Virus record (IMG/VR): IMGVR_UViG_2698536649_000010
Direction: 5' to 3' (one strand)
Source: a virus
Lineage: Duplodnaviria > Heunggongvirae > Uroviricota > Caudoviricetes
Length of the DNA stretch: 9,075 nucleotides
Shown in pieces: positions 2,680-7,458 of this stretch; the stretch's first letter is position 1; each line of letters begins with the position of its first letter. Made by a program: the position numbers and the translations under genes. The notes beneath the pieces are model-generated. The model was not told the origin of the DNA, did no database searches, and saw only the letters and a list, made by a program, of their open reading frames with translations.

Positions 2680-3214
2680 ACAGGTTTGTGAGGCTCTGGA
2701 TACCTGGGTATGCCGACCAGGAATGACACAGGAGCAGGCGACGATATTAATCACGGAAGCATTCTGGGCTCTGAAAGAACGCCCGAACATCGATGTTCAA
2801 CGCGTCACGTTTAATGATGGCGAGGTTGATCAACGGGCGCTGGGCGTTAACCGGGTGAAGATATTCGAACGCTGGAAAGCTATCGACACCAGAGATAAGC
2901 GTGACAAATTCACGGCGCTGATTCCGGCAATTATGGAGGCTATCCGGATCAGCGATTTCAGATTGTATTGTGAAATTACTGACGGAAAAAGCATTACGTA
3001 CATGATCGCCGGGTTAAACAAAGAATATGGCGATGTGGTGGAGTCCGGGCTGCTTTTTGCGGATCCAGTTGTTGTGGAACGTGAGACTGACGAGCTTATA
3101 GAAAAAGCTATTGCTTTCAAGCACGCGTATCGTCAGCAATACCAATATTACTTTGCAGATAAACAAATGTCTGCCAGGGGGTCGTATGAGTATCGATGCA
3201 CTACGATGGGCTAA
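2663..3214 (+). CDS. YdaT-like (CII-position) prophage regulatory protein
   Basis: ATG at 2663 overlaps the dicC stop; 183-aa product resembles recalled Rac YdaT in the central region (ERWKAIDTRDKRDKFTALIPAIMEAI versus WLKGETKTQREKIQKLIPAILAIL). Sits directly after the Cro-like gene. Confidence 0.55.
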   Translation: MKITTEQVCEALDTWVCRPGMTQEQATILITEAFWALKERPNIDVQRVTFNDGEVDQRALGVNRVKIFERWKAIDTRDKRDKFTALIPAIMEAIRISDFRLYCEITDGKSITYMIAGLNKEYGDVVESGLLFADPVVVERETDELIEKAIAFKHAYRQQYQYYFADKQMSARGSYEYRCTTMG

Positions 3215-3767
3215 AAAGGTGAAAACCGGCAGTTCATCCAGTAAGTCAGTATTGACCTGGCTTGCTGATATGTGCGGTGCCGATTTGTGTGCATACCCGT
3301 CTGTATCTGCACTGGCAGAAGTAACGGAACTGAACAAAAAGACTGTGCAGGACAGCTTACGACACCTGATGGAGATTGGGTTAATTGTTGATACCGGTGA
3401 GAGAAAAGGCAGAACAAAGCAAATTGTGGTGTACCGACTTATCGGTGTAGAAGAAAGTGTTGCCGAGCCTGAATACACCCAAAAACGGGAGTCTTTAAAG
3501 GTGGGTACAATTGGTGCTGTTAATAAAAACAGTACCGAAAATGGTTATGTTTCAGCACAAAACAGACCCAAAAACAGAACTCTTAGCTGCATGGAAAATA
3601 ACCAAAGACACCCAAATTTTCCATCAAAGACACCCAAAAACGGATCACGGAACCCAAAGGAACCCAAAGATCTAAACCCCACACATAACGCACGCGAGAG
3701 TGCTCCGACCAGTGAGCAGGAAGTTTTGTCGTTACAGGCAGCCCCCCTGTATTCCTGTATGGCCTGA
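3186..3767 (+). CDS. replication initiator, N-terminal winged-helix part (lambda O-like role); probably truncated by a frameshift
   Basis: ATG at 3186 with GGGGG SD. N-terminal HTH-like region, then a low-complexity linker encoded across iteron-like repeats. Frame ends at TGA 3765..3767 shortly after a C6 homopolymer (3742..3747); the following frame carries the DnaT-like continuation. Confidence 0.6.
   Translation: MSIDALRWAKKVKTGSSSSKSVLTWLADMCGADLCAYPSVSALAEVTELNKKTVQDSLRHLMEIGLIVDTGERKGRTKQIVVYRLIGVEESVAEPEYTQKRESLKVGTIGAVNKNSTENGYVSAQNRPKNRTLSCMENNQRHPNFPSKTPKNGSRNPKEPKDLNPTHNARESAPTSEQEVLSLQAAPLYSCMA
3475..3670 (+). repeat. iteron-like direct repeats (candidate replication origin) inside the initiator gene
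   Basis: Six copies of an ACCCAAA-core motif with core at 3477, 3566, 3609, 3631, 3652, 3662. Spacings of 43, 22, 21 and 10 bp approximate multiples of a helical turn. Position inside the linker-coding part of the initiator gene parallels ori-lambda inside O. Confidence 0.45.
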
Positions 3768-3790
3768 GCGAACCCATCGGAAAATTCCCG

Positions 3791-4225
3791 ATGAGCGATA
3801 GCTGGTATCCGTCACGGGATTTTCGACGACGGGCTGCGTTGTGGGGGATGGCTTTGCCGGAGACAGAATTTACACCTGCTGAACTTGCCGCCTTCCGGGA
3901 CTACTGGGCAGCGGAGGGGAAAGTGTTTACGCAGATTCAGTGGGAGCAGAAATTCGCCCGTCACGTAAATCACGTCAGGGCGCAGGTTAAACCAGTCAGC
4001 AAAGGGGTAAACCATGCAGCAGCACCAGGTGGCACCGCATCACGGGCAGTTCAGGAAATTCGGGCAGCACGTGAGCAGTGGGAACGTGAAAACGGATTTA
4101 TCAGCGACGGAAACGGCCTGGAAGCTGTGGGAACTCATGGGGGTGGTTTATTCGAACCGCTGGATCCAGAAGAACGGGGCCGCACCTTCGAAGCTCTGGA
4201 TTGCACAGATTGGCGCGATGACTGA
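3791..4225 (+). CDS. DnaT C-terminal-domain-like (primosomal protein I-like) ORF; probably the frameshifted C-terminal half of the initiator
   Basis: Product YPSRDFRRRAALWGMALPETEFTPAELAAFRDYWAAEGKVFTQIQWEQKFAR aligns with recalled E. coli DnaT ([55 protein letters not shown]). The similarity continues upstream of ATG 3791 in the same frame (EPIGKFPM versus VPMGKFAM), where no start codon exists. 3' end in this frame (4225) overlaps the P-like gene by 212 nt, so the true stop is uncertain. Confidence 0.5.
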   Translation: MSDSWYPSRDFRRRAALWGMALPETEFTPAELAAFRDYWAAEGKVFTQIQWEQKFARHVNHVRAQVKPVSKGVNHAAAPGGTASRAVQEIRAAREQWERENGFISDGNGLEAVGTHGGGLFEPLDPEERGRTFEALDCTDWRDD

Positions 4226-4679
4226 GCAGCAAATCCGGCAGGTCTGCCGCCAGTGCATGGACCGCTGCCGGGCGGGTGAAACATGGCCTCCGGACCTGGC
4301 TGAGTTTGTGGCACTGATTTCGAAAAGCGGAGCCAATCCATTCGGTCTGACGGTGGATGCTGTGATGGAGGAGTACCGCCGCTGGCGCAATGAGTCCTGG
4401 CGATACGACGGAAGTGATAAGTACCCGTGGTCTCAGCCTGTGCTGTATCACATTTGCCTCGAGATGCGTTCAAAGGGGATTGAGCGCCAGATGACCGAAG
4501 GGGAATTAAAACGGCTTGCAGAACGGCAACTGACGAAATGGGCAAAGCATGTTAGTAACGGCCTGAGCGTTCCGCCAGTCCGGCGACAACTGGCGGCCCC
4601 CAAACGCCCGTCGGGGCCAACGCCAATTGAGTTGCTGAAACAGGAATATGAACGCCGGAAAGCGGCCGGTTTTGTCTGA
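4014..4679 (+). CDS. lambda P-like replication protein (DnaB helicase loader)
   Basis: ATG at 4014 with AAGGGG SD 7 nt upstream; 221 aa. C-terminal half aligns with recalled lambda P (YDGSDKYPWSQPVLYHICLEMRSKGIERQMTEGELKRLAERQL versus YPDAESYPWKSNAHYWLVTNLYQNMRANALTDAELRRKAADEL). Confidence 0.75.
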   Translation: MQQHQVAPHHGQFRKFGQHVSSGNVKTDLSATETAWKLWELMGVVYSNRWIQKNGAAPSKLWIAQIGAMTEQQIRQVCRQCMDRCRAGETWPPDLAEFVALISKSGANPFGLTVDAVMEEYRRWRNESWRYDGSDKYPWSQPVLYHICLEMRSKGIERQMTEGELKRLAERQLTKWAKHVSNGLSVPPVRRQLAAPKRPSGPTPIELLKQEYERRKAAGFV

Positions 4680-4713
4680 GTTGAGAAGTAATTTTTACCG
4701 GGAGGAAAATTTA

Positions 4714-5448
4714 ATGGAAACCGTTTTTGACGCACTGAAAGCGATGGGAAAAGCCACGTCGGTATAGCTGGCTGCGCGACTTGATATCAGTCGTGAAGAA
4801 GTACTGAACGAGCTGTGGGAACTGAAAAAGGCTGGCTTCGTTGATAAAAGCGTATACACCTGGCGTGTGGCTGATAACAACGTTCAGCAGGAACAGCCAG
4901 CGCCAGAAGAAACCACCACGGCAACAGAAGCGAAAATCTCAGAGTGCGATTTAACCGCGACGATTGAACAACGCGGACCACAAACGGCGGATGAACTGGC
5001 TACGCTGTTCGGTACAACATCCCGCAAAGTTGCTTCAACGCTGGCAATGGCAATCAGCAAAGGTCGTCTGATTCGCGTAAACCAGAACGGTAAAATTCGT
5101 TACTGCATACCAGGTGATAATTTACCAGCAGAGCCGAAAGTTGAATCGGTAGCGGAAACCGATGGTAAAGCCTTTCCTCAGCCAGCCGGTGTTGCGTTAC
5201 CGGTACAGAAAGATGCAACACAGGAAGATATTAAAACAGAAACTGTGGCGGACATTGTGCAGTCGCTGCCATCGTTTACTGCAACGCGAGAAGATGATTT
5301 GATTTTGCCATCGCTGCATATGGCAAATCGCGAACTGCGTAGGGCGAAGAATCATGTCCAGAAGTGGGAGCGAGTCTGCGCCGCGCTGCGGGAGCTGAAC
5401 AAGCACCGGGATATGGTTGCCGGGATTTGTCGGAAGTCCGGGCAATGA
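4714..5448 (+). pseudogene. double winged-helix protein gene interrupted by an in-frame amber codon
   Basis: ATG at 4714 with GGAGG SD 8 nt upstream. Codon 18 is TAG (4765..4767) and the same frame continues open to 5448. The N-terminal repeat ([40 protein letters not shown]) and a second repeat ([38 protein letters not shown]) both look like winged-helix units. First possible restart downstream is GTG 4867. Confidence 0.55.
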
Positions 5449-5483
5449 GCGGATGGTGCAGGCCTGAAATCATGATACTAACA

Positions 5484-6056
5484 ATGAAGGTAAAATGCAT
5501 CGGCAGTCTGATTGGTCGTAGTGAGGCGGCGGTCAGGATGAAAGCCCAGGTTAAGGGAATAAGCCTGATTCTGCGGGGTGATTTTCACCAGTCAACAAAA
5601 TATCCGTAGCGCGATAACGGTCAAAAATTATGGCGCTGACACTTTTGTGCCACTGGAGATGACTGTACCTAAGTTCAGGGGAGAAGAACACGTCCGGTGG
5701 GATGGTCGGGCCAGATTTAAAGGGCAGGTCATGGCTCCAGCCTGTACGCTGGCAATGGAGGCTGCCTGGCGGGAAATTGATATGGGAACCACGCCACTCA
5801 GGGATTTACTGCCGGTCCAGAGAATAAATTCCTGTTACGGTTACACCACTGTGATCTTGCAAGTGCAGGAAAGTAGGTCTACACGGTAACGCGAGTGCGT
5901 GTAACTTTTGATGTCATTCCCGTAGAAACACCGGACAAATTTTCGCTGACAGGTCATGCAGAAGGTATAAATCTGCAGATTATGGACAATTACGGATATC
6001 CGGCAAGAGCCGGAAAAAGCATGCCGCCTCTAATTCTCAGTGGAAGATGGACTTGA
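5484..6056 (+). pseudogene. decayed fimbrial major-subunit-like gene remnant (chaperone-usher type)
   Basis: Three successive frames carry fimbrial-like segments: a signal-like MKVKCIGSLIG (from 5484), then GRARFKGQVMAPACTL...INSC (5578..5889; compare FimA GGTVHFKGEVVNAACAV...LNDC), then GINLQIMDNYG (5895..6056; compare FimA GVQILDRTG). At least two frame changes are needed, and the usual C-terminal strand is missing where the AT-rich block begins. Confidence 0.35.
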
Positions 6057-6307
6057 TTATACTCATTGCATTGTCAGAAATAGTTATCCATTAAAGGCTG
6101 GCTATTCCAAACAGGATGTTGATTACAAAAATGTAATCAACATGTAAGGTTTATACTCTTCAATATGCGTATAATTTTCCTTATTTTGTTGACTTTAAAT
6201 AACAAGCTATGCACGAGGTAAAGTCGGATAAGTTTATCTGGATGTAATATATATTATTTGTAGTGTTTATAACTTTATTTCATGATAACCAATAAAAGGA
6301 GTTTTTT
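6057..6307 (+). promoter_or_regulatory. AT-rich upstream region of the binding-protein moron (promoter not resolved)
   Basis: Strongly AT-rich compared with flanking phage genes. Contains a 10-bp inverted repeat GTTGATTACA-AAAA-TGTAATCAAC (6118..6141), a TATAAT hexamer at 6170..6175, TTGACT at 6189..6194, and a strong SD AAGGAG at 6296..6301 before ATG 6308. Confidence 0.35.
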
Positions 6308-7249: not shown

Positions 7250-7302
7250 GCTGCGGGTGCTTGAGGCTATCTGCCTCGGGCATGAACACCAACGGCAGAT
7301 AG

Positions 7303-7353
7303 ATAAAAGCCCCACCCGACTATAAATCGAAGTGAGGCCCCTATATGCTCGTC
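7303..7353 (-). ncRNA. candidate Sok-like antisense RNA
   Basis: Minus-strand hairpin (7309..7339, stem with two G-U pairs) followed by a U-run (7308..7303). Possible promoter on the minus strand: -35 TTGACC (+7383..7388), 17-bp spacer, weak -10 CAATCT (+7360..7365). It is antisense to the hok leader around the mok start, where Sok acts in known hok/sok loci. Confidence 0.3.
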
Positions 7354-7401
7354 ACATATAGATTGCCTCTTACGGACCGAAAGGTCAAGGAGAAGCAGGC
7401 T

Positions 7402-7458
7402 ATGAAGCAGCAAAAGGCGATGTTAAAAGGCGGGGGAGAAATCCCTCGCCACCTCTGA
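7402..7458 (+). pseudogene. hok: truncated hok toxin ORF (18 codons; HokD-like N-terminus, transmembrane segment absent)
   Basis: Encodes MKQQKAMLKGGGEIPRHL then stop. The first 8 residues match recalled HokD/RelF (MKQQKAMLIALIVICLTV...); the hydrophobic helix and C-terminal domain are missing in all three frames before the terminator, implying an internal deletion of roughly 100 to 130 bp. Confidence 0.55.

Follow-up and report, generated by a model that had tools for sequence, protein, structure and literature searches.

A young in-frame amber codon in the ydaW-family (DUF1627) gene of the Escherichia coli O157:H7 PPompW prophage, probably an ordinary lineage-specific nonsense mutation

The DNA analyzed here, referred to below as the window, is a stretch of 9,075 nucleotides from IMG/VR virus record IMGVR_UViG_2698536649_000010. 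It is 99.8 to 99.9% identical to a region of the E. coli O157:H7 chromosome, and it also matches phage records of PPompW, a lambdoid, Rac-like prophage at ompW that has been described previously (bioRxiv 10.1101/2020.11.04.367953). Judged by these sequence matches, the window is the early region of that prophage, integrated at ompW in E. coli O157:H7. The gene order, taken from RefSeq annotation of strains F3113 and PV15-279, begins with dicB, ydfC, a helix-turn-helix (HTH) repressor on the minus strand, and a Cro/CI regulator. It continues with YdaT, an O-like replication gene with a DnaT domain, replication protein P, a DUF1627 gene, and an ORF of 54 amino acids, and it ends with a frameshifted fimbrial pseudogene, paa, hok/sok, and a DUF968 gene. 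The features that concern us are as follows.

3111-3767 and 3791-4225: two ORFs, fragments of the O-like replication gene in the window (ORF list)
4218-4679, plus strand: replication protein P gene (Pfam Phage_lambda_P; annotation)
4700-4716, plus strand: intact translation start, with a GGGAGG Shine-Dalgarno sequence at 4700-4705 and ATG at 4714-4716 (sequence reading)
4714-5448, plus strand: ydaW-family (DUF1627) gene, 244 codons plus TGA, interrupted at codon 18
4714-4764, plus strand: 17-codon N-terminal remnant, METVFDALKAMGKATSV (translation)
4765-4767, plus strand: amber TAG at codon 18, read as a former GAG (Glu) altered by G to T at 4765 (translation, orthologue alignment)
4768-5448, plus strand: 226-codon remainder, a RefSeq/PGAP coding sequence from a CTG start (WP_077744273.1; annotation)
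4867-5448, plus strand: 193-codon ORF from GTG, the first canonical in-frame start past the TAG (ORF list)
5445-5609, plus strand: 54-amino-acid ORF, WP_001505071.1, PHROG 30109 (sequence, annotation)

The P gene lies immediately upstream, which places the ydaW-family gene in the early replication-module operon. The ATG at 4714 aligns with the start of intact orthologues. The sequence at 4756-4773 reads ACG TCG GTA TAG CTG GCT, and both the sequence and its translation confirm the in-frame amber codon that a preliminary description of this DNA had reported. That description had the frame continuing intact for 227 more codons. Translation of 4714-5451 bears out the open frame and corrects the number, as the TAG is followed by 226 sense codons before the TGA at 5446-5448 and the figure of 227 counts the terminal stop. 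The computed chance of an open stretch of 226 codons is about 2e-5, as (61/64)^226, and homologues align as one continuous gene across the TAG. When termination at the amber codon is normal, METVFDALKAMGKATSV is the sole product. The ORF of 54 amino acids begins with an ATG that overlaps the TGA of ydaW (ATGA, 5445-5448), and its own stop is a TAG followed by C. It is probably translationally coupled to ydaW and hence affected by the upstream amber codon; because of the overlap, its translation is probably reduced.

For the family profiles, the query was either the protein with codon 18 set back to Glu or the 99%-identical protein of an intact allele (P0001). Residues 84 to 236 match Pfam PF07789 (DUF1627) with an E value of 8e-93 and 308.7 bits against a cutoff of 28.1. 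Residues 4 to 46 give weak matches to HTH_20, TrmB, and ArsR-type models, all below curated cutoffs, and the PHROG 630 profile aligns end to end, over residues 1 to 242 (E value of 2.5e-121). The product of 4714-5448 is 91% identical to YdaW of the K-12 Rac prophage over residues 1 to 151. By these comparisons, the gene is assigned as an orthologue of Rac ydaW and a member of the DUF1627/PF07789 family, PHROG 630. It adjoins the prophage replication genes on their 3' side, following P in O157, O55, O145, and O111 and following a ydaV/DnaC-like gene in Rac, Rac-SA53, phage 683R6, and strain ML35. The full-length frame from METVFDALK is interrupted here by the TAG, making this copy a disrupted member of the family. 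The K-12 Rac gene (b1361) is alike in having Glu at position 18 and in following replication genes (ydaU-ydaV in Rac, the O-like gene and P here), and it is also damaged within a cryptic prophage. However, the K-12 protein is truncated at its C terminus to 186 amino acids, with similarity ending after residue 151, and keeps its N terminus, whereas in the O157 copy a point mutation interrupts the frame at codon 18 and the remainder is kept. YdaW has been predicted to be a transcription factor of the MarR type (PMC9308461), and an overexpression screen picked it up as a blocker of RcaT, the toxin of retron-Sen2 (bioRxiv 10.1101/2020.06.22.160242).

The family comprises 2724 clusters at 90% identity, and the 120 closest were examined. 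The M1 start was present in 113 of these, and the few clusters without it look like partial sequences or calls on the mutant allele. Codons 1 to 51 show pN/pS values of 0.00 to 0.33 among orthologues, indicating purifying selection. In the comparison of O55 with K-12, this segment has 11 synonymous and 2 nonsynonymous differences (pN/pS of 0.05). Because of the purifying selection, the M1 starts, and the full-length PHROG profile, we read the N-terminal segment upstream of the GTG at 4867 as coding. Conservation, pN/pS, and the full-length PHROG 630 profile rule out a true start at this GTG with a noncoding segment before it. The preliminary description had raised the possibility of orthologues that start at the GTG and lack the upstream repeat; none was seen, and the orthologues include that repeat.

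An AlphaFold2 model of the intact allele P0001 was built from an alignment of 40 sequences. The mean pLDDT of the whole chain is 65 and the pTM 0.28, with pLDDT values of 80 to 85 in the domain blocks. The following elements are predicted by the model.

Winged helix 1: helix 4-11, strand 13-15, helix 16-23, helix 27-40, strand 49-51
Disordered linker: residues 54-72
Winged helix 2: helix 77-87, helix 92-99, helix 103-115, hairpin 120-131
Disordered stretch: residues 136-195
Long C-terminal helix: residues 190-243

Codon 18 falls in the first helix of the predicted HTH (residues 16 to 23), within a T/S-x-E-L-A motif. The amber codon had been placed in the recognition helix, and the model moves it to helix 2, the recognition helix being at residues 27 to 40. 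In the same model, METVFDALKAMGKATSV would cover winged helix 1 from its first helix through the short strand and two residues into helix 2. Two helix-strand-helix-helix-wing modules are predicted, and a Foldseek search of the PDB returned winged-helix proteins only (MarR, ArsR, FeoC, Z-alpha, and tandem ScpB), as weak matches with E values of 3e-3 or worse. At the level of prediction, this agrees with the earlier reading of the gene as a double winged helix, which is a reasonable one. The MarR, ArsR/SmtB, FeoC, and ScpB families share the predicted fold with YdaW residues 1 to 52 and 77 to 131. The modeled match to FeoC (4awx_B) has an rmsd of 1.1 over 58 columns and a TM-score of 0.83 normalized to the target, and that to the tandem winged helix of ScpB covers 158 columns. 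The C-terminal DUF1627 helix of YdaW is without counterpart in these four families, and DNA binding by YdaW is a prediction.

Codon 18 is GAG, and the gene is intact, in the same prophage of O55:H7 strains TB182A and DEC5B, O145:H28 strain RM12761, and O111:H8 strain 8B, as well as in a related prophage copy in strain RM9088. O55:H7 is the lineage from which O157:H7 descends. The codon is GAA in the more distant Rac-SA53, phage 683R6, and strain ML35. Besides K-12 YdaW, Glu at position 18 was found in the intact 232-amino-acid paralogue of another O157:H7 prophage and in all 117 of the 120 closest clusters that cover the position. Since intact relatives all have GAG or GAA, the comparison identifies the mutation as GAG to TAG, a G-to-T transversion from Glu, and not a C-to-T change from Gln. 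The CAG origin that had been proposed is ruled out, with GAG in the closest relatives and GAA farther away, and the orthologue alignment suggested along with it likewise gives Glu and not Gln. The amber codon thus occupies a position that is GAG or GAA in the closest relatives, within a region under purifying selection. The sense codon in homologues and the full-length frame bear out the view of a genuine nonsense mutation in a real gene.

The intact 244-amino-acid allele, WP_000450692.1, occurs in O55:H7 and O145:H28 (TB182A, DEC5B, and RM12761). It shares with the O157 copy the prophage, the synteny, and the length of 244 codons; unlike the O157 allele, it has GAG at codon 18 and is uninterrupted. 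In a 3-kb comparison that sets aside changes private to the window, DEC5B differs from the O157 allele by the amber single-nucleotide polymorphism (SNP) and one synonymous change. Because DEC5B is nearly identical over these 3 kb, the mutation appears to be young, dating to after the split from the O55:H7 strains examined and common to the O157:H7 genomes sampled. The atypical O157:H7 strain PV15-279 also carries the TAG. The event had been called recent in the preliminary description, and this stands in the evolutionary sense; a mutation private to one strain or a base-call problem does not, as the 59-mer containing the TAG is present in 292 complete genomes.

A contig from one read-set assembly (Logan ERR14980420; L011, positions 1696-2418) carries an in-frame 12-bp deletion of codons 17 to 20 (V-E/stop-L-A), equivalent to window positions 4762-4773, which gives an open gene of 240 amino acids (P0003). 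The deletion may have removed the amber codon and so restored the frame, or it may be unrelated to the amber codon and have arisen in a GAG allele; of the flanking SNPs, those at 4437 and 5460 are O157-like and the one at 3181 is O55-like.

The exact 59-mer (4737-4795) was found in 292 of 5426 complete E. coli genomes and in 7 IMG/VR contigs. All 19 of the genome matches listed, an even sample down the ranking, have an O157:H7 or O157 label or no serotype label, and the TAG is shared by strains PV15-279 and F3113. With GAG in place of TAG, the 59-mer has exact matches in 311 genomes, which belong to many other serotypes, and among the genomes listed the TAG was seen only in the O157-type allele. 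Three IMG/VR contigs (L014, L015, and L016) have the TAG allele and are identical to the window from 4723 to about 7349, with mosaic flanks. L014 has about 30 substitutions in the replication genes, and L015 and L016 show only 90 to 94% identity downstream of hok. Because these contigs are identical around the TAG and mosaic in their flanks, the amber-bearing segment appears to have been carried through prophage recombination events.

Gene callers hide the pseudogene by starting the coding sequence at CTG 4768 (PGAP) or GTG 4867 (other pipelines). The 226-amino-acid product from the CTG is called on at least 1000 public contigs and the 193-amino-acid product from the GTG on 999, with A0A9Q7ED04_ECO57 as UniRef representative; the intact 244-amino-acid protein is on record from about 1000 or more contigs. 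Both shortened products are named "DUF1627 domain-containing protein" or "DNA-binding protein." A search of the literature found general mentions of DUF1627/YdaW and of PPompW and none of this mutation. Events of this kind are ordinary, and the sequence has been publicly available for a long time.

Two features are private to the window. Between 4667 and 4722, covering the 3' end of P, the spacer with the Shine-Dalgarno sequence, and the first three codons of ydaW, there are 12 clustered differences from every O157:H7, O55:H7, and IMG/VR copy of the prophage. Over this patch the window has the same sequence as the P/DUF1627 junction of a paralogous prophage that O157:H7 genomes also carry (L010, strain 4276, at about 2.056 Mb), which appears to reflect either gene conversion over a short tract, from one prophage to the other, or a chimeric assembly. 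Each of the 12 changes is either silent or noncoding, and the spacing between the Shine-Dalgarno sequence and the ATG shifts by 1 nucleotide. Farther downstream, the sok antisense RNA is intact at 7255-7404 (Rfam RF01794, 103.9 bits). The hokD toxin ORF that follows it lacks 137 bp at about 7427 (window 7255-7430), and only ATGAAGCAGCAAAAGGCGATGTTAA is kept before downstream sequence. Full hokD is present in all other copies examined (O157:H7, O55:H7, and 6 IMG/VR contigs), and the gap reflects either loss of the toxin gene in this copy alone or editing of the source record. Neither the patch nor the hokD gap was found in any complete genome or in any of the 7 IMG/VR contigs that carry the TAG.

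Other genes of the prophage are broken as well. The O-like replication gene, with a DnaT-like single-stranded DNA-binding domain (window 3186-4225), is in two parts in the window because a C is absent at about 3741. The frame of the F3113 copy is shifted at another point, where a G is absent at about 3942, and the PV15-279 copy has an IS1203 insertion; the gene is intact in O55:H7 and O145:H28. As read from these sequences, the replication initiator was inactivated independently in the window, F3113, and PV15-279. The region between ydaW and paa, at about 5614-6147, contains a fimbrial-protein pseudogene with a frameshift and internal stops. Since O55:H7, O145:H28, O111:H8, and RM9088 also have it in inactive form, its lesion is older than the ydaW amber codon. 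An intact ydaW paralogue is found elsewhere in the same O157:H7 genomes.

These observations are very probably explained by an ordinary lineage-specific nonsense mutation that left a young pseudogene in the decaying PPompW prophage of O157:H7, with no adaptive explanation needed. An alternative that we regard as improbable is that the amber codon remodels the gene instead of killing it, through a restart at CTG 4768 or GTG 4867 that makes a functional truncated protein. Such a product would keep winged helix 2 and the C-terminal helix and lose part or all of winged helix 1. The GTG, at codon 52, comes right after the wing of the first domain (strand 49-51) and at the edge of the linker (54-72), and in the model a restart there would delete exactly one domain, fairly cleanly. 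RefSeq and UniProt already model products of this sort, and E. coli is known to reinitiate translation past early nonsense codons, as in lacI and in rIIB of phage T4. However, we saw no Shine-Dalgarno-like sequence before the CTG or the GTG on reading the sequence, and CTG initiates translation very poorly. No family member naturally begins at either codon, as shown by the prevalence of M1 starts, and the frame that stays open past the TAG says little when the mutation is so young. A consensus scan of 4400-5700 found no plus-strand promoter within the gene; its sole plus-strand site, a weak one at 4681-4710, lies upstream of the normal ATG, and an internal promoter for a truncated transcript was rejected on this ground. 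An adaptive version of the restart, in which the allele spread with O157:H7 nonneutrally as a one-domain YdaW isoform with altered action made from GTG 4867, is less probable still. If it were true, the isoform would keep the C-terminal oligomerization helix and might, for example, act as a dominant negative on the intact paralogue in the other O157:H7 prophage (L010), or it might change prophage induction, antidefense activity, or expression of the downstream paa adhesin region.

Production of the full-length protein despite the amber codon, at a low and conditional level through near-cognate decoding of UAG-C or a suppressor tRNA, is very unlikely. The Shine-Dalgarno sequence and ATG are intact, and the base after the TAG is C; UAG followed by C is said to have been described by Poole, Brown, and Tate in 1995 as a relatively weak termination context. 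Some readthrough is thus possible, but basal readthrough is typically well under a few percent. The preliminary description had suggested that the gene might be expressed only in an amber-suppressor host and had proposed a check for supE and supF. Alleles of supE (glnV with a CUA anticodon) and supF (tyrT with a CUA anticodon) were built from the MG1655 genes and searched as exact matches in the 5426 complete genomes. The supF allele was found in none of these genomes. The supE allele was found in 155, fewer than the 292 with the TAG, and the 40 listed included no O157 strain and were mostly K-12 laboratory strains, such as C600, DH5alpha, DH1, and J53. No tRNA gene was found in the window. 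Suppression would also extend the neighboring ORF at 5445-5609, which normally stops at TAG-C. These results run against a suppressor host, as far as supE, supF, and tRNA genes of the window are concerned. None of the other clusters among the 120 closest has a stop at codon 18, and no Rfam element was found at the TAG or in the gene, the only one in the window being sok; because the stop is not conserved in homologues and no such element is present at the site, programmed readthrough or recoding is not supported. Hardly credible at all is an artifact, either a misread base at the TAG or a noncoding segment ahead of GTG 4867. The private oddities of the window (single-base indels at 1872 and 3741, the 56-bp patch, and the 137-bp hokD gap) might point to a lower-quality or edited source. 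However, 292 complete genomes, each assembled independently, and 7 IMG/VR contigs have the identical TAG, which rules out a sequencing error at this codon, and the upstream segment is conserved, under purifying selection, and within the family profile.

In the nonsense-mutation reading that we favor, a single G-to-T change in the O157:H7 lineage, once it had separated from the O55:H7 strains examined, would have turned codon 18 (GAG, for a Glu that is invariant in the first HTH helix) into TAG. In a nonsuppressing host, ribosomes starting at ATG 4714 would terminate at 4765 and release a 17-residue peptide, the remaining 680 nucleotides would go untranslated, and the full-length protein would essentially not be made. 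The ORF of 54 amino acids would probably lose its translational coupling, a polar effect. Neutral fixation by hitchhiking with the O157:H7 clone would suffice to explain the spread of the allele. Selection against the loss was presumably weak because the operon is a repressed early one, the O-like and fimbrial genes are already broken, and an intact paralogue exists elsewhere. The remaining 226 codons are without further lesion, and there are about 1 to 2 differences from O55:H7 in 3 kb; the absence of further lesions is uninformative because the time elapsed is too short.

Amber mutants of lambdoid phages made in the laboratory (lambda Oam29, Pam80, and Sam7, with supE or supF hosts) likewise have an in-frame UAG in an early or accessory gene, and for them as for the O157 allele a full-length product would need an amber suppressor. 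However, the lambda mutations were selected as conditional lethals in essential genes and kept in suppressor strains. The O157 allele is natural, is widespread in the O157:H7 genomes examined, belongs to a host lineage without supE or supF, and lies in a nonessential accessory gene of a defective prophage.

RefSeq and UniProt entries that present the broken gene as an ordinary protein of 226 or 193 amino acids inflate the N-terminal diversity of the family. As a simple marker, the G-to-T SNP at codon 18 tells the sampled O157:H7 genomes apart from the two of O55:H7 that were examined. The biological weight of the mutation is small, as it adds one inactivating lesion to those of an already degrading prophage, in a pathogen that has been sequenced many times over. 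Tests of YdaW function, such as the blocking of retron toxins, call for the O55:H7 or O145:H28 allele and not that of O157:H7.
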